Positions 1 through 56,063 of a stretch of DNA of 64,000 nucleotides are shown here, piece after piece (position 1 is the stretch's first letter; each line of letters starts with the position of its first letter). Origin of the DNA: Candidatus Omnitrophota bacterium. Lineage in GTDB: Bacteria; Omnitrophota; Gorgyraeia; Zapsychrales; JBAZNR01. The stretch covers positions 158,934 through 222,933 of the forward strand of contig JBAZNR010000001.1 of the NCBI GenBank assembly GCA_041649175.1. Reading direction: 5' to 3'. The notes under the pieces are model-generated. The model had not been told where the DNA came from and made no database searches. It saw only the letters and a list, made by a program, of their open reading frames with translations. Made by a program: the position numbers and the translations under genes.

Positions 1-1465
1 CGCCGAGCAAAAGAGAGTCGGCAAAAAAGAATTCTTTTTTTTGCGTTACGGCATTAATGCGCAAGATCGGTTCGTGACCCGCATTAATATGTTCAAACGT
101 CATTTTCTCCAGATCCAAGACCCCATAGGCCAGCGAAGCAAAAGTACTTATGGGAACATGGCGCACCAGCATATTATTTAAAATAGAGATCGATTCTATG
201 ATCGATATCCCTTGATGATTCAAATAAAAAAGAAGGATCTTGATCATGGTCATGACAAATGCCGACGGAAGGCTATGGCCGGTCACATCCGCAATAACAA
301 TACCTAAACGGCTATCTTTCATTTCAATACAGTCGTAATAATCTCCTCCAACCACCCCGGCGGCCGCATAAACCGCCGCCATATCGACGCGGCTATTTTT
401 AGGCAAAGACTTCGGTAAAAGTGCCTGTTGGACAACAGCCACCGTCTTTAATTCTTGATTCATCTTTTCTTGGGTTATTCTAAGCTCTTCATTTTTAGCG
501 CGAATTCTTTCGTTGGCGATCTTTAGATATTCGATTAAAGAATCCTGTAAATCCCTAAAAAGCCCGCTGTTTTCAACCGCTACCGATACATGATTCGCTA
601 AAATGATCGCGGTTGCCAAATCTTCCTCAGTAAAGATGTGATCAGATTCCGTAATATTGAAATTCAACGTCCCCTTGACCGAATTTTTATATAATAGCGG
701 AACATTAATGGAACATTTGATCCCTTCTTTCCACTGGATATTGCGAAAACGAGGATCGTCATCAGCTTTGCCGTATAAAAGAAGCGGCTGGCGGTTTTTG
801 ATCACCCAGCCTGTAATGCTATGATTGGCGTCTAAAGATGGATGGATAAGGTCACTGCGTATTTGCGCGCCGGAAAACTCCGAAGCGATCACCATAAACT
901 CGCCCGCCTCTTCCTTTAGCAAGATCACCGAAGCGGTATCCGCATGCAAAAGCTCTCGTCCAACTTTTGTGATATGCGCCAATATTTCTTGTGTTTCCAT
1001 GTTGGAAATAAGTTGGCGCGACAAATGCATGATGGTATTTAGTTTGGCTGTTTTCTGTGTTAATTCTTTCGTTTTATCGGCGAGCTCAAGGTTAAGGCTC
1101 TCTAAACGTTTTTCATGATGGCTCATCAGGTCCCGGAAAGAAACAAGCCCGACAATTTTTCCGTCATCAACAACCGGCATGTGGCGGATCTGCCGCTCGC
1201 GCATCAGCTTTATCGCTTCTAGGTAGGATTCATTGGCCGAAATAACTTTGATATCCTTCGTCATTAGATCACGAAGGACCGGCGAGGCAAGTTCGTTGCC
1301 TTGACGGTTTAACGCCACTTTATTAAGAAGATCTCGTTCGGTAAATATTCCAAAAGATCCGTCTTGGCTGCGGACAACGACCGAACCGATATTCTTCTCG
1401 CGCATCAACAAAACAGCTTTTTCTAACGAGCAAGCGTCATCAACGATCACAACATCTCTCGTCAT
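1..1465 (-). CDS. CBS-CBS-GAF-PP2C (SpoIIE/RsbU-type) serine phosphatase, 5' complete, runs off left edge
   Basis: Hand translation of the minus strand from ATG at 1463-1465 gives MTRDVVIVDDACSLEKAVLLMREKNIGSVVV... (two CBS motifs), then a GAF-like region, then 'GIVIADVTGHSLPSAFVMTM' typical of PP2C/SpoIIE phosphatases. No stop before position 1. Missed by the ORF track because it is open-ended. Confidence 0.6.
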   Translation of the reverse strand, partial: MTRDVVIVDDACSLEKAVLLMREKNIGSVVVRSQDGSFGIFTERDLLNKVALNRQGNELASPVLRDLMTKDIKVISANESYLEAIKLMRERQIRHMPVVDDGKIVGLVSFRDLMSHHEKRLESLNLELADKTKELTQKTAKLNTIMHLSRQLISNMETQEILAHITKVGRELLHADTASVILLKEEAGEFMVIASEFSGAQIRSDLIHPSLDANHSITGWVIKNRQPLLLYGKADDDPRFRNIQWKEGIKCSINVPLLYKNSVKGTLNFNITESDHIFTEEDLATAIILANHVSVAVENSGLFRDLQDSLIEYLKIANERIRAKNEELRITQEKMNQELKTVAVVQQALLPKSLPKNSRVDMAAVYAAAGVVGGDYYDCIEMKDSRLGIVIADVTGHSLPSAFVMTMIKILLFYLNHQGISIIESISILNNMLVRHVPISTFASLAYGVLDLEKMTFEHINAGHEPILRINAVTQKKEFFFADSLLLG

Positions 1466-1508
1466 GCACGAGCAAACTAAATTTTGTTTTTCTGTTTGTA
1501 TCATATGT

Positions 1509-2192
1509 TTAAGACGATGATTGATTGCGGCTTAAGCGCTCAATGTCTTTCTCTTTTTCTTTTAATATAGTTTGTAATCTTTCATATTCCGTCTTGGCGA
1601 CCCATTGCGTCTGGTCGTTTTTCTTGACCAATTCATCGGCGATGTGTTTTTGCTTTAGGAATTCTTTCTTGTAATGATCCACGTCAGACTCAAGTCGCAT
1701 TGATTTTAGGGACAGCTCTTTGTTCTCGCTTGTCAACCTCGTAAGGTCTTTACGCAATTCCGTTAATTCGCGCTCAAGCTTGAGCTTCACGGCATGCTGT
1801 GCTTCCAGCTCAGACTGAACTTTCATAAGGTCATCTTTAAATCCCGAAGCTTCTTTTTCCTTTTTTTGAATGGCGCTTTGATCTTTTTCCAGCCATTCTT
1901 TTTCTTGCAGAACTTTCTCCTGAAGCTTGGTCGTTTTTGCTTTTTCGACCGCAAGGTCTTTAAGTGTATTTTTTTGTTCTTGCTGGAGCTTGCCTATTTC
2001 TGTCTTCAAAGAATAGATATGTTTTTCCAGGCGAGCGATGACAGTTTCCCAGTGCTTCGAGTCGACAATCGGTTCTTTTTGCCTTTGCTGCGACTTTGTT
2101 TTTGATTTCTCCGGGAAAAAAATAAAAAGAGAGATGATCAGTGTTACAACCGCTAAAATGATCGCACAGGCAATAAGTAGGAAATTTGACAT
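1509..2192 (-). CDS. membrane-anchored coiled-coil protein (N-terminal TM, long K/E/Q/L-rich heptad region)
   Basis: ORF track; hydrophobic N-terminus LLIACAIILAVVTLIISLFIFF followed by about 190 aa of coiled-coil-like sequence. Confidence 0.45.
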   Translation of the reverse strand: MSNFLLIACAIILAVVTLIISLFIFFPEKSKTKSQQRQKEPIVDSKHWETVIARLEKHIYSLKTEIGKLQQEQKNTLKDLAVEKAKTTKLQEKVLQEKEWLEKDQSAIQKKEKEASGFKDDLMKVQSELEAQHAVKLKLERELTELRKDLTRLTSENKELSLKSMRLESDVDHYKKEFLKQKHIADELVKKNDQTQWVAKTEYERLQTILKEKEKDIERLSRNQSSS

Positions 2193-2219
2193 ATCGTATG
2201 GTGATTGAAATAATTTTTC

Positions 2220-4298
2220 TTATTCTATCACAGGTTTTTTTCTTTCGTCGCGGAATATCGAAAGATTATTTTTTGCCCTCAAGAAGCGTTTTTGGATCTC
2301 TTTGGCCTTATATTCAAATTCTTGCCTCAAATTCTCCTGCCCCGTCTTTTTATAATAGTGCGCCAAATTAAGATAAGCGGCCGTATGGTTAGCATCAATT
2401 TCAATAGCCTTTTTAAAACATCGCTCAGCCCCTTCAAAATTCCCTACCCCGTCATAAGCGATACCTAAAACATTGTAGGCATCCGCGTATTGTGGATTGA
2501 TCACCAACGCTTGAATATTAGCCGAGATAGACTGAGAATACATTTTTTGCGCCAAATATAAATTTCCCAACGCATAATAACTTTCCGCCGAATGAGGGTT
2601 ATGGCGAATGGCTGTTTTAAAATAATTCTCGGCATCCCCAAAATTATTTAAACGCATATAAATATTACCTAAATTTAAATACGGAACATCGCTTTGAGGG
2701 CGAATACTAGCTGCTTTATAATATTGCGCCGACGCAAATTCAAGCTGCCCCTGCTGATAATAAAGGTTTCCTAAGTTAACATTAGCTTCAAACGATTGAG
2801 GATCAATACGCAAAACTTCTTCCCATTGTCGCTGAGCCTCGCTCACTTTTCCTTTCTTAAAATAGATCTGCCCAAGATTAATGCGGGCAACCGTGTATCG
2901 GCTATCTAAGGCGATCGCCCTTTCATACTGCGCTTGAGCTAGATCCAAGAAACCTTTTTCTTGATAAAAAAGCCCCAAATTATTATGCGGCCTGGCTTTA
3001 GTGGGAGATTTTTTAACAACATCTTCCAATAGAATGATCGGATGAGCCCAAAAAATGTTGCGCGCAAAGGTCAGCAAAAGGAGGCTTAAGACAATACCGC
3101 TAAGAAGAATGACATATTGTTCTTTTTTCGTAAAAATAGCACGAAGCCCCCAAGAGACCAAGAAGGAAAATCCGATCACGGCCACATAAAGACGGTGTTC
3201 AAAAATAAGATCAGGTAGAGGGAAAATGGTTGACTCAGGGATCAAAACAATAAAAAACCACGCCACGCAAAATGATATCACCGGATTTTTTTTGCGCAAC
3301 AGATAGGCCGCAATAATGATAGAAGTTAAAGCAATGAGAGAAAGAACGGCCGGTAAGGAAAATAAATTCCTCACCAAGGAATAGTCGTAATCCAAATTCT
3401 GGTTTATCGGAAGAAATAAAAGCTGAATATATTTTACGAGAACCACCCATTGAGTTAAAAGATAATCCCAGCGCGAAACCTCCGAAGTGACGCGGGTCGC
3501 ATAAGTTAATTTTGAAAGGTCAAAAGACTCCGAGAAGTAATTCAGCGAGAAAAGAATAAGAAAGACCGGGACAAGAACAACCGTTGCAAGAAAAGGAAGT
3601 AAAAGAACGGCTTCTTTTTTGATCGTTTTCCATGACAAGCGGAAAAATAGAGCTTCATAAAGCAAAACCACTAGCGGCACAGTCACAAAGATAGGCTTGG
3701 TCATTGCCCCTAAAAGAACAACACCCCAAAGACACTGATAATCCTTTATCTTAAAACCTTTCTTTAAACGAAGATACAAAATCAAAGCAAGTGTATACGC
3801 GATCGTAGCCAAAATGGTCGAGCGTTGCACAATATAAGTCACAGATTCCGTTTGGATGGGATGCAAAAGAAATATCAAAGCGCTAAAAAATGCGATGAGC
3901 CCCTGGTCTTTACTACTAGCTTGGTGATCTTTCGATGCAAGGCATAACGTCTCACGGATCAGATAAAAAACTAAGATCGCGCAAATCGCGTGGAGAAGAA
4001 AATTAACAAGATGAAACCCAAAAGTATTAAAACCGGAAAAGTGATAATTAAGCGCGAATGTCAGATGGGTTAAAAATCGGCTTGGATCATACCAAAAGAG
4101 CTTATCGAGAGAATCTAAATGCCGAATGAGCGGATTTTTAAAAATAACGGGAATGTCATCGAGTTGGAACGGGGAGGTAAAACCGCGTCCGTAGGCAATA
4201 ACACCTAAAACGATCACAGCGATCGTAAGCTTAACAACGGACCTTTGCGTGAGCAAGCGAGCAACTGATTTGAAATTTAGCAAGAAACCACCGATCAA
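2220..4298 (-). CDS. TMTC/DUF1736-like GT-C membrane glycosyltransferase homolog with C-terminal TPR array (paralog A)
   Basis: Multi-TM N-terminus with 'FQLDDIPVIF', 'HLVNFLLH', 'LHPIQTESVTYIVQRST'; C-terminal half has at least 8 TPR-like repeats (…YERAIALDSRY…, …NLGNLYYQQGQ… etc.). Confidence 0.6.
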   Translation of the reverse strand: MIGGFLLNFKSVARLLTQRSVVKLTIAVIVLGVIAYGRGFTSPFQLDDIPVIFKNPLIRHLDSLDKLFWYDPSRFLTHLTFALNYHFSGFNTFGFHLVNFLLHAICAILVFYLIRETLCLASKDHQASSKDQGLIAFFSALIFLLHPIQTESVTYIVQRSTILATIAYTLALILYLRLKKGFKIKDYQCLWGVVLLGAMTKPIFVTVPLVVLLYEALFFRLSWKTIKKEAVLLLPFLATVVLVPVFLILFSLNYFSESFDLSKLTYATRVTSEVSRWDYLLTQWVVLVKYIQLLFLPINQNLDYDYSLVRNLFSLPAVLSLIALTSIIIAAYLLRKKNPVISFCVAWFFIVLIPESTIFPLPDLIFEHRLYVAVIGFSFLVSWGLRAIFTKKEQYVILLSGIVLSLLLLTFARNIFWAHPIILLEDVVKKSPTKARPHNNLGLFYQEKGFLDLAQAQYERAIALDSRYTVARINLGQIYFKKGKVSEAQRQWEEVLRIDPQSFEANVNLGNLYYQQGQLEFASAQYYKAASIRPQSDVPYLNLGNIYMRLNNFGDAENYFKTAIRHNPHSAESYYALGNLYLAQKMYSQSISANIQALVINPQYADAYNVLGIAYDGVGNFEGAERCFKKAIEIDANHTAAYLNLAHYYKKTGQENLRQEFEYKAKEIQKRFLRAKNNLSIFRDERKKPVIE

Positions 4299-4329
4299 TT
4301 CTTAAACAACCTTTTGACTGATTTCCGTT

Positions 4330-5109
4330 TTAAATAAAATCTTTAATTTTATCCATGAACGATTTAGAATCGAACGTATTATCAATTTCTATCGGCTTCT
4401 CTTTGTTTCGGATCTTTTTCCCCCGTCCGCCTAAAACAAATTGCCCCCATTGAGAATGTGGCGTTTGCTCTTTAGGCTCAATAAGAGAATAAACAACGAC
4501 GGAAACCTGCTTTGCCGCCGGGCAATCATCAAGGGCCTTTATGATCTCATCCGAACTTATTTCCGAAAAACTATACTGCAGAATAAAAAGGTCCGGCAGC
4601 AACTGCAGCGCCTTGCCTAAAGCCTGGTGGCCATCTGCCGCTAAGCTCACCTGGTAACCTTTCGCTTCCAGCTGCGCTTTCATTTCCTGCAGCCGAGCAG
4701 GATTAGTGCCCGCGATCAAGGCCGTCTTGGCTGCGCTTGACGACTTTACAGCGCCAGCTAATAATTTTTTAACTTGAAAAATCAGGTCTTCCGGCTCAAA
4801 AGGTTTGGTTAAAAATGATTGTACTCCTAAACTTTCAAAAGAGTCTTTCATCGCCCCGCGACCCGTCATGACCAAAACCGGAATATGCGCGATCCTCGGG
4901 GTTTCTTTTAACTTCTTATAAAATTGAAATCCGTCCATGCGCGGCAACAAAATGTCTAAGATGATCAGGTCGAACATATTCTCTTTCAAAGTCTCTAGCC
5001 CCTCTATTCCGTCGAGAACGGCAAGGACTTCAAACCCAGAGCGTTCTAATTTAAGCTTAATGAGTTCAGCGATCGCCCGATCGTCTTCGATCACCAAGAT
5101 TTTTTGCAT
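4330..5109 (-). CDS. response regulator: REC domain plus a second REC-like domain lacking the phospho-Asp (pseudo-receiver), no DNA-binding output
   Basis: MQKILVIEDDRAIAELI…DLIILDILLPRMDG…LTKPF (canonical REC); the second domain has 'DLFILQYS' in place of the acceptor Asp. Confidence 0.7.
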   Translation of the reverse strand: MQKILVIEDDRAIAELIKLKLERSGFEVLAVLDGIEGLETLKENMFDLIILDILLPRMDGFQFYKKLKETPRIAHIPVLVMTGRGAMKDSFESLGVQSFLTKPFEPEDLIFQVKKLLAGAVKSSSAAKTALIAGTNPARLQEMKAQLEAKGYQVSLAADGHQALGKALQLLPDLFILQYSFSEISSDEIIKALDDCPAAKQVSVVVYSLIEPKEQTPHSQWGQFVLGGRGKKIRNKEKPIEIDNTFDSKSFMDKIKDFI

Positions 5110-5142
5110 AAATATCCCTCAAATAATGGCACGGTAAATAAT

Positions 5143-6972
5143 TTACTGCTTAGATCTAAGTAAAATTTCTAAGTTGCGCCTAGCAGGTTTAAAATCCGGA
5201 TTAATTTCCAAGGCCTTATGAAGCCACTCTTGCGCATCTCCCGATTTTTCTTCCTGCACGTAACATAAGGCCAAATTGTTCATAGCCCAAATATTACGCG
5301 GCTGCAGTTGAATAGCTTGTTTAAAACATTCTTTTGCTTTCGCTGTGTTTTTCAGTGAAAAATAGGCACTGCCTAGGCTTGCATATGAATCACCATCCCC
5401 AGGATCAATGACCAGGGCTTTTGAATATTCTTCAATAGCCTGTTGCATATTTTGCTGAGCAGCATAACACTGCCCTGATCCACGATAGACATCTCTAAGA
5501 AAAATGTCATAGATGCCCTCTTTCCCTTTTAACTTAGCTTTAGCCGCATACTCTTGCATTATGTTTAGAGCTTTCAAATATTCATCTAGGGCTTTGTCAT
5601 ATTCACCCGCAGAGTAATACGCCTTGGCTAATAAAGTGTGAACGCGTCCTAATTGGCCCTGAAATTTTAAGGTTCGTTCAAAAAGCGGTATTTCTCCCCG
5701 CCAATAAGTATTTTGTTTGATCGTTGCGCCCAAAAAAATTAAAACAACCACAATGAAGAATATCGAAAAGATATTTTGAGATCTTTCTTTTAAGAAAGTA
5801 TCCGAAAGATATTTTAGCGTAGCAACCATGAATAACACAAATCCGCCTAGCGGCAAGTAAAGAAAATGCTCCGAAGTCATAATGGACGAGTATTCAATAA
5901 TAAGCGGCATGATATTAAGAACGGGCAAGATCCAAATAAAGAACCACCCTAACGCGAATAATAAAATAAGCCGATATTCTTTTGAAACTATTTTAAAGAT
6001 CGCTATAATTCCAGCCAAAACTGCCACAATCCCAGCCATAGAACGCCAGGAAAACTGTAAAATATCTATGCTGCGGTAATAATGCAGATCGACGGGAACA
6101 AAAAGAATGGCGAGGTAATCAAGGAGGGTCTTAGGGATTATCCTAATCCTTAGCCATAATTCTTCGGGGTAATCTAGGAAGGATGTTGAGAATGTTCCAA
6201 GGATAAATTTCCGGAGGATAAAATACCCAGCGGCCACGGCCAGAAACCCGCCAACACAAAAAACAGTTTTACCAAAGTCTTTTTTCTCGCTCCGATAAAA
6301 AACCCACTCGAATAAAAAGATCAATGCCGGTAATACAATGGCTTGTTCTTTGGCAAGCAATGCCATTATGAAGAATGCCAACGATGAGATATAGGAAGAG
6401 ACTTGGGATCTTTTATTGCGGCTTTCCCTGGCCTGCAAATAGAAAATAAAGCTCAGTAAACACAATAAAGCAAAAACAAGGTTCGAGATCCCCGATATAC
6501 AACTCACAGATTCCGTTTGAACAGGATGGAGCAGAAATAAAACAGCAGCTACAAAAGAAACCTTCTTTTCTTTTAAGAAATAAGTTAAGACCCGAAAGAA
6601 CAAAATCGCATTGATAATGTGGAGGAGGATGTTCACCAAATGGTATCCATGCGCATTCAATCTGAAAAAGAAGAATTCAACTTTGTAAATGACCTCAAGT
6701 AATGGCCGATAATACGGGTTGACAGCAGCTCGAGCCCCCTCCATTGAAACAGGCTCAAGAAAATATGCCGCAAGATTATCCCAACGCCCAATCAAAGGAT
6801 TATTTTGGATGAATACTACATCATCATGGACAAAGGGATGAAAGATGGCATTGGCATAACCCAAAAGCCCTAGAACAACTAGACAAATCGTAACTTTTTG
6901 CAAGTTTAAAACAACAAAGAAGTTCTCGGTTACTTGCTGCCACGCTTTAAATTGTTTTTCCATAAGCGACAA
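5143..6972 (-). CDS. TMTC/DUF1736-like membrane protein with C-terminal TPR repeats (paralog B, divergent)
   Basis: 'FHPFVHDDVVFIQNNP', 'HLVNILLHIINAILFF', 'LHPVQTESVSCISG' (the QRST part of the motif is degenerate); C-terminal TPRs. Confidence 0.55.
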   Translation of the reverse strand: MSLMEKQFKAWQQVTENFFVVLNLQKVTICLVVLGLLGYANAIFHPFVHDDVVFIQNNPLIGRWDNLAAYFLEPVSMEGARAAVNPYYRPLLEVIYKVEFFFFRLNAHGYHLVNILLHIINAILFFRVLTYFLKEKKVSFVAAVLFLLHPVQTESVSCISGISNLVFALLCLLSFIFYLQARESRNKRSQVSSYISSLAFFIMALLAKEQAIVLPALIFLFEWVFYRSEKKDFGKTVFCVGGFLAVAAGYFILRKFILGTFSTSFLDYPEELWLRIRIIPKTLLDYLAILFVPVDLHYYRSIDILQFSWRSMAGIVAVLAGIIAIFKIVSKEYRLILLFALGWFFIWILPVLNIMPLIIEYSSIMTSEHFLYLPLGGFVLFMVATLKYLSDTFLKERSQNIFSIFFIVVVLIFLGATIKQNTYWRGEIPLFERTLKFQGQLGRVHTLLAKAYYSAGEYDKALDEYLKALNIMQEYAAKAKLKGKEGIYDIFLRDVYRGSGQCYAAQQNMQQAIEEYSKALVIDPGDGDSYASLGSAYFSLKNTAKAKECFKQAIQLQPRNIWAMNNLALCYVQEEKSGDAQEWLHKALEINPDFKPARRNLEILLRSKQ

Positions 6973-7000
6973 CTACTTCCCATTATTTTGACTTTGAAAA

Positions 7001-7423
7001 CTACTTAATCACCCAGCTCCCGTCCTCATTTTGAATTTTATCTCCGGCCGCCGCTTTATCTTTCTGAACTTGAGCAAAGACCTTCTCAATGGTTTCTAAG
7101 GCATTTGTCAAATTGTTTTGTTGTTCAATAGCCCGATAAATACTCTTCCTGTCATTATTCTCAGAAGCAACCAACGATTTTGCGCTTGCATCGTCAATAA
7201 GGGCAACAACATACCCGCGATTTCCCTCGCCGACAATACCTTGGCTTTTTAGCTGACGCAACTGTTCATAACGATTTTTCCGGTTTTCCAGGGCCGACTT
7301 TACCTCGGGGGTCATTTCCTTGATATCGTAACTGCTTTCGCAAAATACGGTATGCGGATTTATTGCCGATATAAAAAAAGCTGCATACGCCACAAGTACT
7401 GCTCTCAATAACATTCTAGACAT
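7001..7423 (-). CDS. DUF1318 / YdbL-like periplasmic protein
   Basis: Signal peptide; 'QGIVGEGNRGYVVAL…SENNDRKSIYRAIEQQN' matches the G-x-VGE…G-Y-L and EN-x-DR…Y core of the YdbL family. Confidence 0.5.
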   Translation of the reverse strand: MSRMLLRAVLVAYAAFFISAINPHTVFCESSYDIKEMTPEVKSALENRKNRYEQLRQLKSQGIVGEGNRGYVVALIDDASAKSLVASENNDRKSIYRAIEQQNNLTNALETIEKVFAQVQKDKAAAGDKIQNEDGSWVIK

Positions 7424-7440
7424 ATTCTTTCTCCTTAAAA

Positions 7441-7638
7441 TTATTTTGTTTGTGTATTTGTTTGTTCTTTTTCACCGCTTACAAAATCTTCAATACTGCT
7501 GGCGGTATCTTTGAGCCCTTTGACATCAATGGTGATATGCGCATTAATGGTGATGGGCCGTTGCGGATCACCGACAGCTTTGACCGTACATCCGCACGCA
7601 AAAAATGCGAGCAGAAATATCGCTATCCATCTATTCAT
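7441..7638 (-). CDS. small lipoprotein, YnbE-like by position and composition (start moved to the internal Met)
   Basis: MNRWIAIFLLAFFACGC lipobox; mature part is a short beta-rich peptide 'PITINAHITIDVKGL'; sits between the YdbH-like and YdbL-like genes as in ydbH-ynbE-ydbL. Confidence 0.4.
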   Translation of the reverse strand: MNRWIAIFLLAFFACGCTVKAVGDPQRPITINAHITIDVKGLKDTASSIEDFVSGEKEQTNTQTK

Positions 7639-7677
7639 AAAATCCCCTTTCTCCGTATTTGACTTTAGCATGTATTC

Positions 7678-8703
7678 TTAAAATTTCTTTAGCAGCCGTC
7701 CAAACGCATTATCTAAATTGACATCGATCGTTAAATTGATATCTAAATTTAATTCTTGGCTGGCCAAATTCACCACTCCCTGCAAATTCTTCTCGCTTAA
7801 GGTATTAAAATAAACAGAAAGTTTATCGAGTCCGACATCGCCCCCAGCCGACGATAGAGCCTCCAAATCGCGTTTTTGAACACTGTTGTAGGGCAATTTG
7901 TCGGCAATAAAATCCAGCAGAGAAGCTTTTATTCTCGCATCCTTAAAAACGCTCAAATCCGCTTCGAGCTGTCTTATCTTTTGGATATTCCCCGCCATAT
8001 TGACAACGCCGCTTAAATGCCCTTTGACCTGAGAAAAAATATCGGGATGTGAACGCGCGATCAATTCTAAGTCGACGTTTTCAAGATTTATACGAGCACT
8101 ATACGGCAACAAAGAAGCGTAATCCAGAAAGATTTCCCCCTTGATATCTCCTTTATAAAATTGGGCGGAAAGATCATTAAGGTGAACTTTTTTGTTATCG
8201 CCCTTAAAATGTGACCGGATGTTTTGAGCCGAATAATCGTACGCCAACAATTGCTGAGCTTTAAAATATCCACTTATTTGTTCTAGATCGATTCCCTGGA
8301 CACCAAAAGACACATCGAGCGAAAGGCCCTGAATTGTCGCCGGAAAAAATGAAATATCCGCTTCTTTCAAAGAACAAAATATCTCTTTCTTTGGCTTTAA
8401 GAAACCGCTCATTTGTTTAAGCTCTATGATCTTAACTGAAATCGCTTGTTTCTGGCCTGAGCTTTCGATGCTTAATTTTACGTCCTCGAGGATCAACCTT
8501 GCCGGAAAATAAAACCGCTGATGGCTGCATTCAAAAGATTGAACTTTCACATCTCTGAACGAAGAATGGATGATATTCCGTACGGCAAAAGGTGTGAGCA
8601 ATGTCGAATTTAATACAAAATAAAAAGCTCCCAAGCCGATCGCGACTAACACTAAAAACCCAATGCCTATTTTGATAATAATTTTCATAATCGCTTCCAT
8701 CAA
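7678..8703 (-). CDS. AsmA/YdbH-like N-terminal-anchored periplasmic protein (short, 341 aa)
   Basis: Single N-terminal TM then a soluble domain; gene order with the downstream lipoprotein and DUF1318 gene mirrors E. coli ydbH-ynbE-ydbL. Confidence 0.35.
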   Translation of the reverse strand: MMEAIMKIIIKIGIGFLVLVAIGLGAFYFVLNSTLLTPFAVRNIIHSSFRDVKVQSFECSHQRFYFPARLILEDVKLSIESSGQKQAISVKIIELKQMSGFLKPKKEIFCSLKEADISFFPATIQGLSLDVSFGVQGIDLEQISGYFKAQQLLAYDYSAQNIRSHFKGDNKKVHLNDLSAQFYKGDIKGEIFLDYASLLPYSARINLENVDLELIARSHPDIFSQVKGHLSGVVNMAGNIQKIRQLEADLSVFKDARIKASLLDFIADKLPYNSVQKRDLEALSSAGGDVGLDKLSVYFNTLSEKNLQGVVNLASQELNLDINLTIDVNLDNAFGRLLKKF

Positions 8704-8708
8704 ATATA

Positions 8709-10766
8709 TTACAGCTGATTTTCCTTCTTTAGGTAACGATTGCGCAATGCTTGAGCCTTGTTTCCATTACCCTTTTGTTCGTAGATCCTCACAGCGCTTT
8801 CCATAGCTGCCTTAGCATCCTTTTCTCGATCTAGCCCGTAGTAGACATTGGCTAGGTTTTCATAGCTTTCCGCGTCGTCAGGATTAAACGTAAGAGCTTT
8901 TTGAAAAATCTTTTCAGCTTCAGGTAAATTCTTCTTAAGGACGTAAACTTTTCCTAAATTATGGTAAGCCAAAGAAAAATCTGGTTTTATTTTCAATAAT
9001 TGTTCGTACTGCTTGATCCCTTCGTCATATTGCCCCATCATCCCATAAGTGCTCGCCAAACCATTATGGGCATTGAGATGATACGGATTATTCTCAATGG
9101 ATTTTTTAAATTGGTCGATCGCTTCCATATATTTTCCCTGACGCGCGTAAAGATTTCCCAGATTGCAATAAGCATCCGCATAATGCTCGTCGATAGCGAT
9201 CGCGGCTTTATATGAGAGTTCGGCTTTCTTTACGTCGTTTTTATTGTGATATAAATACCCTAAATTAAAGTAATAACTTGGATGCGGGCGGCCATCGTCT
9301 TTGTCAATGGCCTCTCGATATTTACGCATCGCCTCATCAATTTTCCCCTGCCGCTCATAAACAACGCCTAAATTATGATGAAACTGGGGATTTTTCGGGT
9401 CTAATTCAATAGCTTTTTTCACATCCCGTTCCGCGAAACTCAGATTTCCTATACGCAAATAATAATCACCGAGATTATTCGCGACACGAGCCTTGTGAGG
9501 AGATTTGCGGAATGTATCAATGAGAAGCGTTTCTTGATTAGCCCAAACATTATTCCTGAGGATCGTCAGGCCCGCAAGCCCTACGGCTATTATCAAAAGA
9601 ATGCCCGTAGCTTTCTTAAGATCGCGACACATGTTCATAACGAGGACAGGAATGAGAATGCAAAAGCCGACCATCGGCAAATAAAGACGATGCTCAAAAA
9701 TAACGTCCGAAATAGGGAAAATACTTGATTCCGGGATCAAGGTTATAAAAAACCAGAGGATCCCAAAACTATAGATCTTATTCGTTTTATAAACTTTTCC
9801 GGCAAAATAAAGCAAATAGCCCAAGATCAATAAGGAGAAAAAGGTCGGAAAGCTGAACATCCCCGGGGAGAGAGGATAATCATAATCAAAATTCTGCCGT
9901 AATGGCAAAAACAAAAGGCGGATATAAGTGATCAAGACATTGATCTGGGTGCTGAAATAAGTATACCGAGAAAACTGACTTGTTTCTTTGGTCGCGTCTA
10001 AAACTTGCGCCAAATCAATGGTTTCGTTTTTCCAGAGCAAAAGTAGCGCCGGAACCAAGACCCAAAGCACCATAAACGGCGCAATAAATTTTAACCTTTT
10101 GAATAGGTCAGAAAAAGGAGTCCTTAAAACACACAACTCCGCGATCACTAAAGCTAGAGGAAGAGTAACAATATTTGGCTTCGTCATGCTGCCTAAGATC
10201 GCACAAAGAAACGATAGAGCAAAATAAATCCTTTTTTCTTTCAAGCGCGCCAAAAGATAAAAAACAACAGAAGCCATATAAAATAAAGCAACCATCACCG
10301 TCGATCTCTGGACAATATACGTGACAGATTCCGTTTGGATAGGATGCAGCAAGAAAATCAATCCGGAGAAAAATGCCATTCTACGGGCATTAACCGCTAG
10401 ACGAGGTTCTTGCAACAAGAAAATTCCCACAAAGTGGAAAACAAGAATACTGCAGATGATATGCAAAATAAGATTTACAAGATGAAAAGAGAACACATTC
10501 AATTTACCGATAAAGAAATTGAAAGCGAACGTCAAATGCGGCAAGAAACGCGTAGGATCAAAACGCCAGACCCACTGCGGATTTTCTAAATGATGAACGG
10601 GCGGATTTTCGACGATGATCTTATAATCATCAAATTGAAAGCCGCTGTGAAGGCTGTTGCTATAGGCAAGAAATCCTACGGCGCAAAAAACAATAGCAAC
10701 CGCTATAAAAAAGCGTTTGTGGGCCGGAATGATATTTTGGATTTTCTGAAAGCTGGTTAAAAGCAT
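8709..10766 (-). CDS. TMTC/DUF1736-like GT-C membrane glycosyltransferase homolog plus TPR array (paralog C)
   Basis: 'FQFDDYKIIVENP', 'HLVNLILH', 'LHPIQTESVTYIVQRST'; C-terminal TPRs. Confidence 0.6.
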   Translation of the reverse strand: MLLTSFQKIQNIIPAHKRFFIAVAIVFCAVGFLAYSNSLHSGFQFDDYKIIVENPPVHHLENPQWVWRFDPTRFLPHLTFAFNFFIGKLNVFSFHLVNLILHIICSILVFHFVGIFLLQEPRLAVNARRMAFFSGLIFLLHPIQTESVTYIVQRSTVMVALFYMASVVFYLLARLKEKRIYFALSFLCAILGSMTKPNIVTLPLALVIAELCVLRTPFSDLFKRLKFIAPFMVLWVLVPALLLLWKNETIDLAQVLDATKETSQFSRYTYFSTQINVLITYIRLLFLPLRQNFDYDYPLSPGMFSFPTFFSLLILGYLLYFAGKVYKTNKIYSFGILWFFITLIPESSIFPISDVIFEHRLYLPMVGFCILIPVLVMNMCRDLKKATGILLIIAVGLAGLTILRNNVWANQETLLIDTFRKSPHKARVANNLGDYYLRIGNLSFAERDVKKAIELDPKNPQFHHNLGVVYERQGKIDEAMRKYREAIDKDDGRPHPSYYFNLGYLYHNKNDVKKAELSYKAAIAIDEHYADAYCNLGNLYARQGKYMEAIDQFKKSIENNPYHLNAHNGLASTYGMMGQYDEGIKQYEQLLKIKPDFSLAYHNLGKVYVLKKNLPEAEKIFQKALTFNPDDAESYENLANVYYGLDREKDAKAAMESAVRIYEQKGNGNKAQALRNRYLKKENQL

Positions 10767-10849
10767 CGCTAGGTAAGGCTAGCTTCTTTTCATTTTAAAA
10801 ATTACCGGTTTGCCGGAATACAGCAGAACGTAACGTCAAAATATGCCGT

Positions 10850-11197
10850 CTAAAAACCTTTTTTAAGTTTCACTAAATAATTCTCAAGATCTTTTATTTG
10901 GACGTTGACCTGGGTAAGCAGTTGCAAAGTGGACGCAGCATCATTATTCTTGGCCATTTGTTCTATTTGCAGAAAAATAGCGCTGATCTTCTTTGCGGAA
11001 ATATTAGCGGACGCGCCCTTCAGGGAATGCGCTAGGTCCTTGATCTGTCCGAAATCTTTTTTCTCCGCGGCCATTTTCATGGCGGATAATTTGGCCGGAC
11101 AATCTCCCAAAAAAATACCGATCAACTCCAAAAGAAGCTCCTTATCATCTTGAACCCGTTCTAGGACTTCGTTTAAATCAATGATGTCATCGCTCAT
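10850..11197 (-). CDS. Hpt (histidine phosphotransfer) domain protein
   Basis: 'DLAHSLKGASANISAKKI' is the Hpt HSLKG(S/A) motif; 4-nt ATGA overlap with the upstream hybrid kinase. Confidence 0.7.
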   Translation of the reverse strand: MSDDIIDLNEVLERVQDDKELLLELIGIFLGDCPAKLSAMKMAAEKKDFGQIKDLAHSLKGASANISAKKISAIFLQIEQMAKNNDAASTLQLLTQVNVQIKDLENYLVKLKKGF

Positions 11198-13506
11198 TTA
11201 TTTGCCTTTCGCGAAAGAATTCCTTCCACCGTCGTATAAAGTTTATTGAAATCGATCGGTTTCGCTACATATCCATCCATACCTGAGGCAAGGCATTTTT
11301 CTTCATCGCCTTCCATGGCGCGCGCCGTCATAGCAATGATAGGGATATGTTTCCCTGTTTGCTTTTCTTCTTCCCTAATCAAACGTGTCGCTTCCAAACC
11401 GTCTAAGATCGGCATCTGGACATCCATCAAGACAACATCAAATGATTCCTTATTGAGCAAATCCATAGCCTGTTGCCCGTTTTCTGCCACCTGGATCTTC
11501 CAATTCCTTTTTTCTAAAACTCTAACCGCGATTTTCTGGTTAACAGGATTATCTTCGGCCAACAGGATCTTAAGTCCGGAAAGGTCTCTTATGGATACGG
11601 CTGCGCCCGAAGATTTTTCTTCGCCCAAAACTGTTGATAAACCGATCCCGGATTCTTTAATGCCAAAATTCCCGGTAAAATAGAAAGTGCTTCCTTTCCA
11701 TTCCTCACTCTCAACCCAGATCCGGCCTTTCATCATTTCAACCAACCGCTTAGAGATCGCAAGCCCTAAGCCTGTTCCGCCAAAACGGCGTGTCGTCGAC
11801 GCATCCGCCTGAATAAAGGGTTGAAAAAGCATTTCTTGTTTATCTTTTGGAATGCCAACCCCCGTATCCGTCACGGAAAACTTTAATTGGCATTCATGCG
11901 CTGAGGAAGAAACCAATTTAACCGCAAGTTCAATTTTTCCTTTTTGCGTAAATTTGATAGCGTTGTTAATAAGATTGATGAGAATTTGCCGCAAACGAAG
12001 CGGATCTCCTTCCAAGATCTCCGGGATCTTAGAATCAATGACAGGAACCAGCTCAAGATTTTTATTTTTTGCCAAAACGGACAGCCCTTTGCAAACACTT
12101 TGAATAACATTGCGCAGATGAAAATCGATCGCCTCTAGGGTGATCTTTCCCGCTTCAACACGAGAAAGATCAAGAATATCATTCAATAAACTTAAAAGGC
12201 TGGTAGCTGCATCCCGCGCTGTCTTTAAATTATCTTTTTGCTCATCATCAAGCGAAGTATCTAACGTTAAATCGATCATGCCGATGATCGCGTTCATCGG
12301 AGTACGCACTTCATGGGACATATTCGCCAAGAAAACCGTCTTAGCACTGTTGGCCTCTTCGGCGGCCAGCTTAGCCTGCAAAAGAACTTCATGGGCTCGT
12401 TTTCGGTCAGTAATATCCTGCATGATCCCCACAGATCCGACGATATTATCATTGGAATCTTTTAAAACATTGACCGAAAGATCAATATCGATCACTTGAC
12501 CGTCTTTACGCGTTATCTTTGTTTCTAAATGATGTTTCGATCCGATCTGGCGGATATCTTCCGAACGGATCTTCTTCCATTCATCCTTAGGATATAAAGA
12601 ACTAACTGGTTTTAAGTACAGGTCTTTTTTCTTCATCCCTAAAAGATTTTCAGTAAACCTGTTCCAAGAAATAATATGCTCATTTTCATCCGTAAGCGTA
12701 ATAGCCGCCGCGGAATTATCCAAAATAACCCGGGTTTTATTTTCAGATTCTCGAAGTTTTCGTTCAGCTATTTTTTGGCTGGTGATATCGCGCATGATGC
12801 CGATAGCGCCGGTAATATTGCCTTCAATGTCTTTTAAAATAGACACCGACAGGTCAACTTCAATGATACTGCCGTCTTTTTTAACTATTTGCGTCTCAAT
12901 GCTAGATAAGATCCCTTTTTTACGGATACGAAACGCGCGGATCCTGCGCCATTCGCGCGCCGGATAAAGTTCTTTGACGGGTTTGTTGAATAAATCGGAT
13001 TTTAACATTCCCAGCATTCTTTCGGCGAAGGGATTCCAGGCAATGATCCGCTCTTCTTTATCAACAACCGTAATCGCAATAGCCGAATTATCAAAAACAA
13101 CACGGAATAATTCCTTAGATTCCAGAAGTTCGCGCTGAACTCTTTTGTGGGTGGAAATATCTTCCAAGATCCCGTCGACCCAAGCAACTTTTCCCTTTGA
13201 GTCCTTAACAGCAACCGTCGTTAAAGAACACCAGATAAAATCGCCGTCTTTTTTCTTAAGCTTGATCTCTTCATTGCGCAGGTAACCTTGGCGCTCGATC
13301 TTCTTGTTAATGAAGGTGTGCGCCTGGCTATGTTCATAGAGTTTACGTGGAGAAATTTTGAGAATTTCGTTTTGGGTATATCCGAGGATCTTCTGAAAGG
13401 CGGGATTCACAAATAAAAAATGCCCCTTGGGGCCAAGGGTTTTACGGTAGACAGCAACCTGCAAATTATCAATTAACTGCTGAAAATCAATATCGGAAAT
13501 AGGCAT
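11194..13506 (-). CDS. cytoplasmic hybrid sensor histidine kinase (3 PAS, HisKA, HATPase_c, REC)
   Basis: Three PAS-like repeats (…DITSQKIAE…, …DITDRKRAH…), 'MSHEVRTPMNAIIGM' H-box, G-boxes 'DTGVGIP…GGTGLGLAI', C-terminal REC 'ILLAEDNPVNQ…DVVLMDVQMP'. Confidence 0.85.
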   Translation of the reverse strand: MPISDIDFQQLIDNLQVAVYRKTLGPKGHFLFVNPAFQKILGYTQNEILKISPRKLYEHSQAHTFINKKIERQGYLRNEEIKLKKKDGDFIWCSLTTVAVKDSKGKVAWVDGILEDISTHKRVQRELLESKELFRVVFDNSAIAITVVDKEERIIAWNPFAERMLGMLKSDLFNKPVKELYPAREWRRIRAFRIRKKGILSSIETQIVKKDGSIIEVDLSVSILKDIEGNITGAIGIMRDITSQKIAERKLRESENKTRVILDNSAAAITLTDENEHIISWNRFTENLLGMKKKDLYLKPVSSLYPKDEWKKIRSEDIRQIGSKHHLETKITRKDGQVIDIDLSVNVLKDSNDNIVGSVGIMQDITDRKRAHEVLLQAKLAAEEANSAKTVFLANMSHEVRTPMNAIIGMIDLTLDTSLDDEQKDNLKTARDAATSLLSLLNDILDLSRVEAGKITLEAIDFHLRNVIQSVCKGLSVLAKNKNLELVPVIDSKIPEILEGDPLRLRQILINLINNAIKFTQKGKIELAVKLVSSSAHECQLKFSVTDTGVGIPKDKQEMLFQPFIQADASTTRRFGGTGLGLAISKRLVEMMKGRIWVESEEWKGSTFYFTGNFGIKESGIGLSTVLGEEKSSGAAVSIRDLSGLKILLAEDNPVNQKIAVRVLEKRNWKIQVAENGQQAMDLLNKESFDVVLMDVQMPILDGLEATRLIREEEKQTGKHIPIIAMTARAMEGDEEKCLASGMDGYVAKPIDFNKLYTTVEGILSRKANK

Positions 13507-13528: not shown

Positions 13529-13819
13529 CTATCTTTTAAATTTCATATTTCGCGCTAGCGCCAAAAATGACATAAGGCCGACGACAACAGCCAAGCATGC
13601 CAGGCAGATTTTCATTAAAGGCATCCACCCTTTTTGTAGATCCGGTAAAGTTCCCGGATGCGTCAAATAGGCAACAGCAACCAAAACAGTAACGATCACA
13701 CAGCCGGCAATAAAGAATAAAAGAAACGAAAAAAGAAATGTTATGACAAGAACATAGAAATTATATAGAAAAAGATTGCCCTTGGCGATCTTACTGGCCG
13801 CAATTCCTATTCTTTCCAT
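13529..13819 (-). CDS. small two-TM membrane protein
   Basis: ORF track; two hydrophobic helices. Confidence 0.3.
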   Translation of the reverse strand: MERIGIAASKIAKGNLFLYNFYVLVITFLFSFLLFFIAGCVIVTVLVAVAYLTHPGTLPDLQKGWMPLMKICLACLAVVVGLMSFLALARNMKFKR

Positions 13820-13853
13820 ACGCTTATCCTGTCAGATGTTCTTGAACAAGTTA

Positions 13854-14642
13854 TTATTGGCTCAGCTTGTATTTTCCTGGCGCTTCCTTGATCCCTAATT
13901 CAGCCTGTTTGATCCGATCGCTGACAAAAGGGTGAGTGTTTAGGATCAACGGTGTTCGCGCACCTTTAGATTCTCGCTCTAATACCTCTAGAGTTTCTAT
14001 CATACCATTGAGACGAAACCCTGCCAAGTACATATATTTAATTCCAAGCAAATCAGCTTGATATTCGTCTTTTCGGCTGTAAGCGGAGGTCACTAATTGC
14101 ATGGCGATATCAGATGCGAGGGAGGCTGTTTGCCTAGATTGATCGGACATTTTAACCTGGCTGAAGATAAGAGCCCCGATCAGGTTATAGCCTAAAGCAG
14201 CCTGGAATTTTTTGATCGTGTGCCTAGCCGCGCAATGGCCGATCTCATGCGCTAAAACAGCCGCGATCTGATCATCGGTCTTTAGCTTCTCCAATAGGCC
14301 GCGAAAAAAATAAATATTTCCTCCGGGTGTTGTAAACGCGTTCAGCTCATCTTTCTCAATGAGAAAAAAATGATAGTTATAGTCTTTGCGGTCAGAAACA
14401 TCGGCAAGCTTCTTCCCTATCTCTTTGACCCTTTCAAGGTCTTTGTCAGATCCGGAAAGCTTATATTGCTGAGTAACTTCCTGGTGGATGTTTTTCCCCA
14501 TGGCGACTTCGGCATCGGTGGGAATAATGATAAATTCTCTTTGCCCGGTGGCCGGATTATATAAACCTAAAGTCGCGCATCCCGAGATGAGGAATAAAAC
14601 AAAAACGAAAAGAAAAGCACTGCGGATCCTTTGAGTTGTCAT
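13854..14642 (-). CDS. M48-family Zn metallopeptidase lipoprotein (BepA/LoiP-like)
   Basis: 'LISGCATLG' lipobox; 'AHEIGHCAARH' HExxH motif. Confidence 0.75.
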   Translation of the reverse strand: MTTQRIRSAFLFVFVLFLISGCATLGLYNPATGQREFIIIPTDAEVAMGKNIHQEVTQQYKLSGSDKDLERVKEIGKKLADVSDRKDYNYHFFLIEKDELNAFTTPGGNIYFFRGLLEKLKTDDQIAAVLAHEIGHCAARHTIKKFQAALGYNLIGALIFSQVKMSDQSRQTASLASDIAMQLVTSAYSRKDEYQADLLGIKYMYLAGFRLNGMIETLEVLERESKGARTPLILNTHPFVSDRIKQAELGIKEAPGKYKLSQ

Positions 14643-16681: not shown

Positions 16682-17413
16682 TCACTTTCTTAGCCTGAAC
16701 CCTAAATAAAAAAGTGGACGCAAAATGCTCCACCATCCGATAACGGGTTGCATTTTCGTATATCCAAGTTTTTTCGGAGGATAAATTTTCGTCACACCAA
16801 CTTCCCTGACGCGATAACCCAATGTCACGGCTTTAAAGAAAAGATACGGTTCTAATTCGTAAGCGTTTAGCCACTCCTGCCTTAAATTGATCCGTTCATC
16901 TTTGCACAGAGCCAGACGAAAAGCGCGAAACCCGTTGGTACTGTCCGTAATTTTTTTTCCGGTAAAAAGCGAGAATAATAAAGGATGTAGCCGGGTTGCG
17001 AGTTTTCGATAAAGCGGCATGGCGCCCCCGGCGCCATTTTTCTTTTTGTAGCGGGAACCCTGAACAAAATCAAACCCTTCTTTAAAGATCGGTTCCAGCA
17101 ATTGCGGGATCTCATCCGGATTATCTTTGTCATTGCCCGCCATGATCACCAAAACATCATAGTGTTTTTCTAAAGCATAATTGATCGCCGTACGAATGGC
17201 GGCTCCAACTCCCCGGCGCTGAGGATGACGAATGGTTTTAACCCCGCGCGAAGCAAAACTTTCGATCATCTGCGTCGTTCCATCGGTCGACCCGTCATCA
17301 ACGATCAAATAATCGACTTGAGTGACGACCGGACTTCTTAAAAAACGCTCAATAACGCTTTTTAATTTTATATGTTCATTGAAGGCAACCGGAGAGACAA
17401 GGACTTTATTCAT
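16682..17413 (-). CDS. GT2 glycosyltransferase, Dpm1-like polyprenyl-phosphate sugar synthase (soluble catalytic domain only)
   Basis: 'LIVDDGSTDGT', 'FVQGSRY', 243 aa, no TM. Matches dolichol/polyprenol-phosphate mannose or glucose synthase catalytic subunits. Confidence 0.65.
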   Translation of the reverse strand: MNKVLVSPVAFNEHIKLKSVIERFLRSPVVTQVDYLIVDDGSTDGTTQMIESFASRGVKTIRHPQRRGVGAAIRTAINYALEKHYDVLVIMAGNDKDNPDEIPQLLEPIFKEGFDFVQGSRYKKKNGAGGAMPLYRKLATRLHPLLFSLFTGKKITDSTNGFRAFRLALCKDERINLRQEWLNAYELEPYLFFKAVTLGYRVREVGVTKIYPPKKLGYTKMQPVIGWWSILRPLFYLGFRLRK

Positions 17414-18985: not shown

Positions 18986-19171
18986 ATCTTCCTCCTCAAT
19001 TAAAGTCGTTAACAGGAATATATTATAGTGACGAAAGAGTTATTAAGAAAGATTTTATTTTTGCTTTTCCTCAATACTTTTGATTGTTTGCCGCGGCTAA
19101 AACAGGCTGTAATCTATTGAAACATCGGCTCTTTCAAGATAGAATAGTGAGCAAATTAGAACTTCCAGCTT

Positions 19172-56025: not shown

Positions 56026-56063
56026 TTGTTAACCTTTTGCAAGAAACGTCACTATTATATTCC

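Follow-up and report, generated by a model that had tools for sequence, protein, structure and literature searches.

Gene content and packing of the locus

The locus lies in a MAG of an uncultured Omnitrophota bacterium with a compact genome of about 1.2 Mb, and the window referred to below is the whole stretch of DNA that was analysed, 64,000 nucleotides in length. The genes under study are collected in Table 1. A preliminary description of this DNA had listed them as a tightly packed string running from a hybrid kinase to a PP2C phosphatase, and this order was borne out, with every gene on the minus strand and a largest gap of 83 bp, in keeping with the claimed spacing of less than 90 bp. 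The claimed ATGA overlap of the kinase and Hpt genes is also real in the sequence. However, such close same-strand spacing is not special to the string but typical of this compact genome, the median gap being 24.5 bp inside the string and 28 bp elsewhere in the window. Moreover, the co-directional run reaches position 18985 and passes through housekeeping-type genes. A scan of the sequence found promoter-like sites to be no more numerous than after shuffling and showed no clear terminator between genes that would mark off a unit. The string is not a discrete gene unit but belongs to a block, at least 19 kb long, that is conserved in one Omnitrophota lineage.

Table 1. Genes of the string and its flank, in order of position in the window
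Feature	Position	Strand	Characteristics
CBS-CBS-GAF-SpoIIE (PP2C) phosphatase	1..1504	-	Pfam assignment; C-terminus outside the window
CC, membrane-anchored coiled-coil protein	1509..2192	-	One N-terminal transmembrane helix (6-24), coiled coil of ~200 aa
TMTC-A	2220..4298	-	GT-C fold membrane domain (D47/D48) and 7-8 TPRs
Response regulator (RR) without output domain	4330..5109	-	Pfam: canonical REC and a second Response_reg stretch
TMTC-B	5143..6972	-	GT-C-like membrane domain and TPRs; conserved partner of Hpt
YdbL-like DUF1318 periplasmic protein	7001..7423	-	Pfam DUF1318 E=1.1e-18; BLASTP against E. coli YdbL E=7e-16
YnbE-like small lipoprotein	7441..7671	-	BLASTP against E. coli YnbE E=2e-7, 33% identity
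Short AsmA-like protein, 341 aa	7678..8703	-	N-terminal membrane anchor, transmembrane segment 8-26
TMTC-C	8709..10766	-	GT-C-like membrane domain and C-terminal TPRs; accessory paralogue
Stand-alone Hpt phosphotransfer protein, 115 aa	10850..11197	-	ATGA overlap with the stop codon of the kinase gene
Soluble hybrid histidine kinase, 770 aa	11194..13506	-	Pfam: three PAS, HisKA, HATPase_c, REC
Small two-transmembrane-helix protein	13529..13819	-	Immediately upstream of the kinase gene; belongs to the conserved core

The phosphorelay and its terminal regulator

Multistep phosphorelays with a stand-alone Hpt protein are known from Vibrio, in which LuxQ/LuxN signal through LuxU to LuxO, and from Caulobacter, in which CckA signals through ChpT to CtrA/CpdR. 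The genes in the window resemble these systems in that the hybrid kinase has its receiver at the C-terminus and that a small Hpt (with an HxxKG histidine) and a terminal receiver are each proteins of their own. They differ in that the kinase is soluble and has three PAS domains, that the terminal protein lacks an output domain, whether DNA-binding or enzymatic, and that the relay genes are separated by GT-C/TPR genes and the AsmA trio. The kinase, whose orthologues share 54-68% identity, matched HisKA (E=5.5e-20), HATPase_c (E=2.6e-30) and Response_reg (E=5.9e-28) in Pfam, and both phospho-sites are present, namely H398 in HisKA and D695 in the C-terminal REC. The Hpt protein matched Pfam Hpt (E=1.2e-13), and its H57 lies within AHSLKG (the HSLKG motif) and is invariant across all 50 orthologues. 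A complete His-Asp-His-Asp relay is thus encoded among the TMTC-like genes and physically interleaved with them, as the preliminary description had stated, and the predicted lack of transmembrane segments in the kinase, Hpt, regulator and PP2C agrees with its view that these signalling proteins are cytoplasmic. Judged from domains and residues, the phosphorelay is genuine, but of a conventional cytoplasmic multistep type. In NCBIfam, Hpt matched LuxU (E=5.5e-6) and the receiver of the regulator matched CpdR and DivK-like single-domain regulators; these matches are far under the equivalog cut-offs, so the relay is orthologous to none of the named systems.

The regulator proved to have the degenerate second receiver and the lack of an output domain that had been ascribed to it. 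The active site of its first receiver is complete (D9/D10/D52/T82/K102), and the second carries Q178 instead of the phospho-acceptor Asp and AGTN instead of the acidic DD pair. Q178 is invariant across nine orthologues, and the second receiver of distant homologues is still a true one. The C-terminal segment is also conserved, with K231, E237, P239, F246 and D247 invariant. In the AF2 model, the pseudo-receiver consists of four beta-alpha units (pLDDT 80-90) followed by a region below 50 (residues 211-248), and the orientation of the domains is poorly modelled (pTM 0.48). The top structural match of the model was the Rec-Rec' pair of PleD (E ~1e-14, 233-242 alignment columns, 25% identity). 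In the regulator, as in PleD of Caulobacter crescentus, a pseudo-receiver without the Asp comes after the phospho-accepting receiver; unlike PleD, the regulator has no GGDEF, and a conserved stretch of about 40 residues, of uncertain structure, takes the place of the alpha4-beta5 region in its pseudo-receiver.

From these residues, the soluble three-PAS kinase would autophosphorylate on H398, and the phosphate would move to D695 of the kinase's own receiver, then to H57 of Hpt, and in this genome would most likely end on D52 of the regulator. In PleD, phosphorylation repacks both receiver domains and drives dimerisation (PMC12632262). We infer a similar switch here, in which the phosphorylated receiver would repack against the pseudo-receiver and alter dimerisation or partner binding. 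Since the regulator is an output-less protein of REC and pseudo-REC, contacts with other proteins are its most likely mode of action, and the output of the relay would be post-translational, not transcriptional.

The TMTC-like, coiled-coil and AsmA-trio proteins

The eukaryotic TMTC1-4 are protein O-mannosyltransferases of the GT-C/PMT clan, and their full-length bacterial homologues are uncharacterised. The N-terminal membrane domain of the TMTC-like proteins has the GT-C fold, and the C-terminal TPR arrays matched multiple TPR families in Pfam (E 1e-26 to 1e-42). TMTC-B, read as a glycosyltransferase-like enzyme of GT-C fold whose TPRs would lie in the periplasm, has an HDD motif with D50/D51, both invariant in orthologues, and a KEQ motif with K208/E209, and TMTC-C keeps D46 of the DD motif. 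In TMTC-A, D47 is invariant and D48 is at least 90% conserved among 55 sequences, which agrees with the DD motif described for the first extracytoplasmic loop of TMTC (PMC7801869). The putative enzymes differ from TMTC1-4 in having no Pfam GT-C family match above threshold and in their multiplication, five paralogues lying within 25 kb of the window. The N-terminal domains of TMTC-A and TMTC-C had no Pfam match even at E up to 10, the sole Pfam GT-C match of TMTC-B was GT-C_AftD (21 bits versus a cut-off of 26), and a PDB sequence search with the N-terminal domains matched nothing. Fold and motifs, as opposed to family matches, are thus what suggests their TMTC-like identity. A family search with CC gave no match; its coiled coil is probably on the cytoplasmic side.

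The labels given earlier to the AsmA trio stood in part. The BLASTP matches uphold the YnbE and YdbL assignments, the YnbE alignment taking in the lipobox Cys and the PITIN motif; the true start of this lipoprotein is probably Met12, near 7638. The AsmA/YdbH label is weak: the AsmA-like protein matched Pfam AsmA with a score of 27.3 (E=2e-6), under the cut-off of 29.8, and TamB with E=7.5e-5, and pairwise comparison with E. coli YdbH gave no significant similarity. In E. coli, YdbH-YnbE-YdbL form an intermembrane lipid-transport bridge (PMC11126948). The N-terminal anchor is conserved and the gene order is the same here (AsmA-like, small lipoprotein, DUF1318), but the AsmA-like protein is far shorter than the 879 aa of YdbH. 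The trio also occurs in L035, L037, L050, L052, L105, L111 and L112.

Gene order in related Omnitrophota

The comparison covered 55 distinct TMTC-B orthologous loci of related Omnitrophota. The recurrent core is the small membrane protein, the hybrid kinase where present, Hpt, TMTC-B and CC, and the layout seen most often is kinase, Hpt, TMTC-B, CC. Hpt is upstream of TMTC-B in 36 of the 40 loci with enough flank. Downstream of TMTC-B, CC follows directly in 19 of 30 loci, TMTC-A and then CC follow in 4, and the regulator, TMTC-A and CC follow in another 4, two of them with PP2C; in 27 of the 30, the last TMTC gene is followed by CC. The regulator was found in five distinct genomes only and, wherever there is context, lies between TMTC-B and TMTC-A (5/5), and TMTC-C has its present position only in the window and L029. 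The interleaved layout arose by lineage-specific insertions of TMTC-C, the AsmA trio, the regulator and TMTC-A into an inherited block. The relay had been called unusual for being split around glycosyltransferase-like genes; the interleaving is real, but the split is the product of these insertions and so does not clearly speak for control of glycosylation by the relay.

A further receiver gene bears on the end of the relay. About 14 loci have a REC-only gene of about 151 aa at 1.5-2.5 kb downstream of CC, and this gene may encode the usual acceptor in related loci. Most related loci have no regulator in the block; therefore, transfer from Hpt to the regulator is not established. The regulator could instead be a phosphate sink or branch point, competing for Hpt phosphate and tuning the flow to a real output regulator such as the REC-only protein. 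Its lack of an output domain would fit such a role, as would the fact that it is a lineage-restricted addition and that most genomes have a working block without it, and the REC-only protein of L026 has the first receiver of the regulator as its top match in the window (33% identity). However, the pseudo-receiver and the conserved C-terminal segment suggest dedicated partner binding, not a bare sink; PleD-type Rec-Rec' pairs are dimerisation switches (PMC12632262); and L001 carries the regulator with no REC-only gene seen downstream, so another acceptor is not evident there. We consider a sink improbable.

The PP2C phosphatase

The visible part of PP2C is 501 aa, cut by the window start, and an orthologue has 589 aa. 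Similar to the SpoIIE/RsbU/RsbP partner-switching and RssB-type REC-PP2C proteins, a SpoIIE-family PP2C here follows sensory domains and has intact metal-binding motifs (GGDYYD and DVTGH); it differs in its CBS-CBS-GAF input module and in the absence of adjacent STAS or anti-sigma genes, none being found among the window genes at 1-19 kb or downstream of the L001 orthologue. In the preliminary description, all the genes, PP2C included, made up one redox- or metabolite-sensing circuit controlling the glycosylation machinery or fed back on by it. The common strand, the gap of 4 bp between PP2C and CC, the intact catalytic motifs and the same placement in one related species (L001/2/5) speak for such a circuit. 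However, this species and the window are the only two of 30 related loci with PP2C, which is missing from the regulator-bearing L006 and L111 and also from L026, L027 and L029; its presence fails to track the relay or TMTC genes across genomes, and its slot elsewhere holds a ferritin gene, a flavodoxin-like gene or nothing. Because of this rarity and variable slot, PP2C is probably an accessory gene outside any circuit. As to the proposed redox or metabolite sensing, PAS, GAF and CBS are generic domains from which a ligand is not inferable. The complete circuit is very improbable.

Relation of the relay to its neighbours

The relay and the TMTC-like, CC and AsmA genes might be neighbours by descent only, functionally unrelated, with the relay targets encoded elsewhere and adjacency kept because a compact genome of this size retains long co-directional gene strings. 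The equal gap sizes inside and outside the string and the scan for promoters and terminators are in keeping with this, and the block from GFO to CC is collinear in relatives over its whole length, rRNA methylase, HD hydrolase and M48 protease genes included. Moreover, of the recognisable members of the block, the kinase is the least stable: among 25 related loci, it holds its position in 19, Hpt in 23, and SpoU and HD in all 25, with the small two-transmembrane-helix protein present in 23. In 28 loci with distant TMTC-B-like paralogues, no relay genes lie immediately beside the TMTC gene, so no independent re-association was seen. On the other hand, Hpt with its invariant His stays just upstream of TMTC-B or the AsmA trio despite clean loss of the kinase, the regulator was found only between two TMTC genes, and Hpt, TMTC-B and CC remain together through many surrounding rearrangements. 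Descent alone thus has a substantial chance of being the whole account, though short of even.

The best explanation overall, which we hold with modest confidence, is a conventional relay with a PleD-like regulator inside an inherited block, its layout produced by insertions and PP2C probably unrelated to it. For the earlier proposal that the relay regulates glycosylation, adjacency to the TMTC genes is the sole basis, and this adjacency does not extend to the distant paralogues. Any action of the relay on TMTC-B or CC is hypothetical, and its functional coupling to the TMTC and CC genes is plausible but unproven, and rather doubtful at present. As a hint of such coupling, Hpt with an intact His still adjoins TMTC-B in at least six loci from which the kinase has been lost.

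Gene content and the encoded phosphorelay

The window has a GC content of 40-46% and a coding density of about 92%, with nearly all transcription from the minus strand. ORF listing and translation recovered every gene of the preliminary description at the same coordinates, which confirmed the observation of a gene string on one strand. The largest gap within this string was 83 bp, within the limit of 90 bp originally reported, and the ATGA overlap in which the kinase gene ends and the Hpt gene begins was read in the sequence. Rfam and tRNA scans of 1-19 kb yielded no matches.

Genes of the string and the two genes immediately preceding the kinase
Gene	Position	Strand	Assignment and remarks
CBS-CBS-GAF-SpoIIE phosphatase (PP2C)	1-1504	-	Pfam; C-terminus beyond window; orthologue of 589 aa
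Coiled-coil membrane protein (CC)	1509-2192	-	without family match; single N-terminal transmembrane helix and long coiled coil
TMTC-A	2220-4298	-	multi-pass membrane domain, C-terminal TPRs (Pfam)
Regulator (RR), 259 aa	4330-5109	-	two Response_reg stretches (Pfam)
TMTC-B	5143-6972	-	multi-pass membrane domain, C-terminal TPRs (Pfam)
DUF1318 (YdbL-like)	7001-7423	-	Pfam
YnbE-like ORF, 76 aa	7441-7671	-	similarity to E. coli YnbE
AsmA-like, 341 aa	7678-8703	-	weak AsmA match (Pfam)
TMTC-C	8709-10766	-	multi-pass membrane domain, C-terminal TPRs (Pfam)
Hpt	10850-11197	-	Pfam
Hybrid kinase (HK)	11194-13506	-	3 PAS, HisKA, HATPase_c, REC (Pfam)
Small membrane protein (small TM), 96 aa	within 13529-14642	-	two transmembrane helices, without family match; immediately upstream of kinase; kept in 23/25 related loci
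M48 metalloprotease	within 13529-14642	-	lipoprotein-like signal sequence (LISGC); upstream of kinase; kept in 20/25 related loci

At the level of residues, the string encodes the complete His-Asp-His-Asp relay that had been proposed, and all phospho-acceptors were found (H398 and D695 of the kinase, H57 of Hpt in the motif AHSLKG, and D52 of the regulator). The active site of the first receiver of the regulator was intact, with D9/D10/D52/T82/K102 all present. The kinase, Hpt, regulator and PP2C contained no hydrophobic segment and are therefore predicted to be cytoplasmic. A separate classical two-component set, consisting of a REC-GerE regulator, a HisKA-HATPase kinase and a REC-only protein, was located at 54455-56477 (-) and is unrelated to the phosphorelay and the TMTC-like genes.

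The second receiver of the regulator was indeed degenerate, with Q178 at the Asp position and AGTN in place of the acidic pair. Q178 was invariant in 9 orthologues and the distant homologues P0014 and P0016-19 retained a true second receiver, so that the pseudo-receiver is a derived, fixed feature. A scan of genome contigs with the regulator alignment revealed two full-length orthologues only, the remaining matches being generic receivers. In the AF2 model, pLDDT was above 90 for the first receiver and 80-90 for the four beta-alpha units of the second domain. The top structural match was the Rec-Rec' pair of PleD (E about 1e-14, 233-242 columns), which the regulator resembles in being a receiver joined to a pseudo-receiver. 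Phosphorylation of PleD changes the packing of these two domains against each other and drives the protein to dimerise (PMC12632262). Residues 211-248 of the regulator (window 4366-4479), which stand in for the alpha4-beta5 region of the pseudo-receiver, were conserved and had pLDDT below 50, and five residues within this segment (K231, E237, P239, F246 and D247) were invariant among orthologues; the segment may be a partner-binding element.

The TMTC-like proteins and the AsmA trio

The N-terminal domains of TMTC-A and TMTC-C had no match in Pfam (E up to 10), that of TMTC-B matched GT-C_AftD only, below threshold, and none of the three matched PDB sequences. The family nevertheless had at least 2724 relatives at E <1e-5, some of which are named 'protein O-mannosyl-transferase' by JGI. 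In a 55-sequence alignment, D47 was invariant and D48 nearly so after the first transmembrane helix, and H49-D50-D51 and K208-E209 were invariant in the TMTC-B orthologues. Human TMTC1-4 carry DD and KE(T/Q) motifs, and full-length bacterial homologues have been noted (PMC7801869); these motifs agree with the D47/D48 and HDD/KE residues of the window proteins. The family naming, the invariant motifs and a confident AF2 model of TMTC-A (pLDDT 91.6) together support the label of a TMTC-like GT-C fold plus TPR. A literature search on Leptospira LIC11990, which possibly has the same architecture and whose TPR domain has been solved, yielded no functional study. Two more TMTC-like paralogues, 37-40% identical to TMTC-A, were observed at 21507-23531 and 23531-25591 (-) (P0143 and P0189 on record for this genome), and five TMTC-like genes and one PMT_2-like GT-C gene lie within 25 kb.

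The trio between TMTC-C and TMTC-B resembles E. coli YdbH-YnbE-YdbL, an intermembrane lipid bridge (PMC11126948), in its gene order and in the N-terminal anchor of the AsmA-like protein. The DUF1318 protein matched E. coli YdbL at E=7e-16 and the small ORF matched YnbE at E=2e-7, lipobox cysteine included, whereas the AsmA-like protein, which is short, had no significant similarity to E. coli YdbH. The true start of the YnbE-like ORF is probably Met12, at about position 7638, because the alignment with E. coli YnbE begins there and the lipobox cysteine is then placed correctly.

Comparative gene order

Related loci were collected from contigs with homologues of the regulator and TMTC-A and by scanning genomes with the regulator alignment and metagenomes with a TMTC-B alignment, and 19 window proteins were mapped onto all of them by tblastn. 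TMTC-B was at least 35% identical to that of the window in 55 distinct loci (after clustering at 95% nucleotide identity), and these formed one orthologous block: GFO-Hexapep-GT2-(unknown)-SpoU-HD-(M48)-small TM-[HK]-Hpt-[TMTC-C]-[AsmA-YnbE-YdbL]-TMTC-B-[RR]-[TMTC-A]-CC. Upstream flank of 7.5 kb or more was available for 25 loci; SpoU and HD were present in all 25, GFO, Hexapep and GT2 in 24 each, small TM and Hpt in 23 each, M48 in 20 and the kinase in 19. Where the TMTC-B-like paralogue was more distant, at 32% identity or less (28 loci), no kinase, Hpt or CC gene immediately adjoined the TMTC gene.

Of the 40 loci whose upstream flank reached 1.5 kb or more, 36 had Hpt upstream of TMTC-B; the kinase accompanied it in 28 of these and was missing from 8. 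The loss of the kinase was clean in at least six of these eight, the small membrane protein gene abutting Hpt. In L038, L041, L042/L039, L048, L055, L059, L085/L054 and L102, where the kinase was cleanly lost, Hpt kept its phospho-His and its gene remained directly between the small membrane protein gene and TMTC-B. The AsmA trio was also found between Hpt and TMTC-B in L050, L052, L105 and L112, and was present in L035 and L037 without kinase or Hpt.

Flank of at least 3.5 kb after TMTC-B was available for 30 loci, of which 19 had CC directly next, 4 had TMTC-A and then CC, 4 had regulator, TMTC-A and CC (two of these also with PP2C), and 3 had no detected CC. A search for CC homologues gave 4 matches only, none annotated, and a 226-aa gene beside the distant regulator homologue P0013 (L003) was rejected as a CC homologue, having no tblastn match at E <1e-5. 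The regulator was confined to the window, L001/2/5 (one related species), L006, L111 and L112, always flanked by TMTC-B and TMTC-A, and PP2C to the window and L001/2/5; elsewhere the site that follows CC and precedes the aminotransferase gene held a ferritin gene, a flavodoxin-like gene, both or nothing. The regulator and PP2C are accessory genes. About 14 related loci had a REC-only gene of about 151 aa located 1.5-2.5 kb beyond CC on its downstream side (in L026 at 12402-12857, behind the genes for an aminotransferase and a dCMP deaminase); in the genome of the window, the corresponding site lies past the window start. The relay may ordinarily end on this protein, and in most related genomes its terminal acceptor is encoded outside the block.

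Relation of the relay to the putative glycosylation genes

The tight packing noted in the preliminary description does not mark the string as one unit. The median same-strand gap was 24.5 bp within the string and 28 bp outside it, and the co-directional genes run on to 18985 through the small membrane protein, M48 protease, HD hydrolase, SpoU methylase, GT2, acyltransferase and oxidoreductase, so that small gaps are no evidence of an operon in this genome. Promoter-like sites in a consensus scan were no commoner than in shuffled sequence, and a terminator scan found no intergenic terminator delimiting a unit.

The proposal that the relay regulates the putative glycosylation machinery, or receives feedback from it, stood in part. 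The relay is complete and interleaved with TMTC-like genes; however, its split layout is a matter of insertions, and the conservation of the block is not specific to the relay, since neighbouring genes of housekeeping type show equal or greater stability and no independent re-association of relay genes with TMTC genes was seen elsewhere. TMTC-C, the AsmA trio, the regulator and TMTC-A are the inserted genes that produced this layout, and PP2C was gained at a site of variable content. PP2C, assigned to the circuit in the preliminary description, was too patchy for such membership and is probably unrelated to the relay; a partner-switching module was likewise rejected, both for this patchiness and because STAS or anti-sigma neighbours were absent. 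Among the variants of this lineage-wide block, that of the window is the most elaborate, and the main value of recognizing the 'split relay' as such a variant is, at present, corrective. The best explanation would be a conventional cytoplasmic relay of PAS kinase, Hpt and PleD-like adaptor inside an inherited envelope-gene neighbourhood, the only unusual points being a Rec-Rec' regulator that lacks an output domain and the conservation of Hpt, the GT-C/TPR gene and CC as neighbours.

Several observations hint at coupling. The phospho-His of Hpt is invariant and its site beside TMTC-B is held even without the kinase, the regulator has been found solely between two TMTC genes, and Hpt, TMTC-B and CC stay together despite many rearrangements. 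In CC, basic residues follow helix 6-24, and by the positive-inside rule the coiled coil is probably cytoplasmic; we infer that CC is the most plausible cytoplasmic contact of Hpt or the regulator. A functional coupling of the relay to TMTC-B and CC is accordingly a tentative reading, held at clearly less than even weight. It is a good deal more doubtful, and in our judgement improbable, that Hpt, TMTC-B and CC constitute a functional unit in which a periplasmic GT-C enzyme of protein glycosylation is under direct, post-translational gating by the cytoplasmic phosphorelay, via Hpt or the PleD-like adaptor and the coiled coil of CC. To our knowledge, phospho-control of a GT-C glycosyltransferase has not been described. 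If the adjacency were functional, it would offer a first handle both on the role of the very large, uncharacterised bacterial TMTC-like GT-C/TPR family and on how Omnitrophota tie glycosylation in the periplasm, or the assembly of the envelope, to the state of the cytoplasm.

Candidate sugar-donor genes were observed further upstream. A soluble GT2 (243 aa), a hexapeptide acyltransferase and a GFO/IDH/MocA oxidoreductase are encoded at 16682-18985 (-), a trio kept in 24 of the 25 related loci, and divergent from it at 19501-20955 (+) is the gene of a 484-aa protein with a sub-threshold PMT_2 match (E=3.7e-5). Together this set (16682-20955) looks like an ArnC/ArnT-style pairing of a lipid-linked sugar donor maker with a GT-C transferase, and the trio could supply donor to the TMTC-like enzymes as well.
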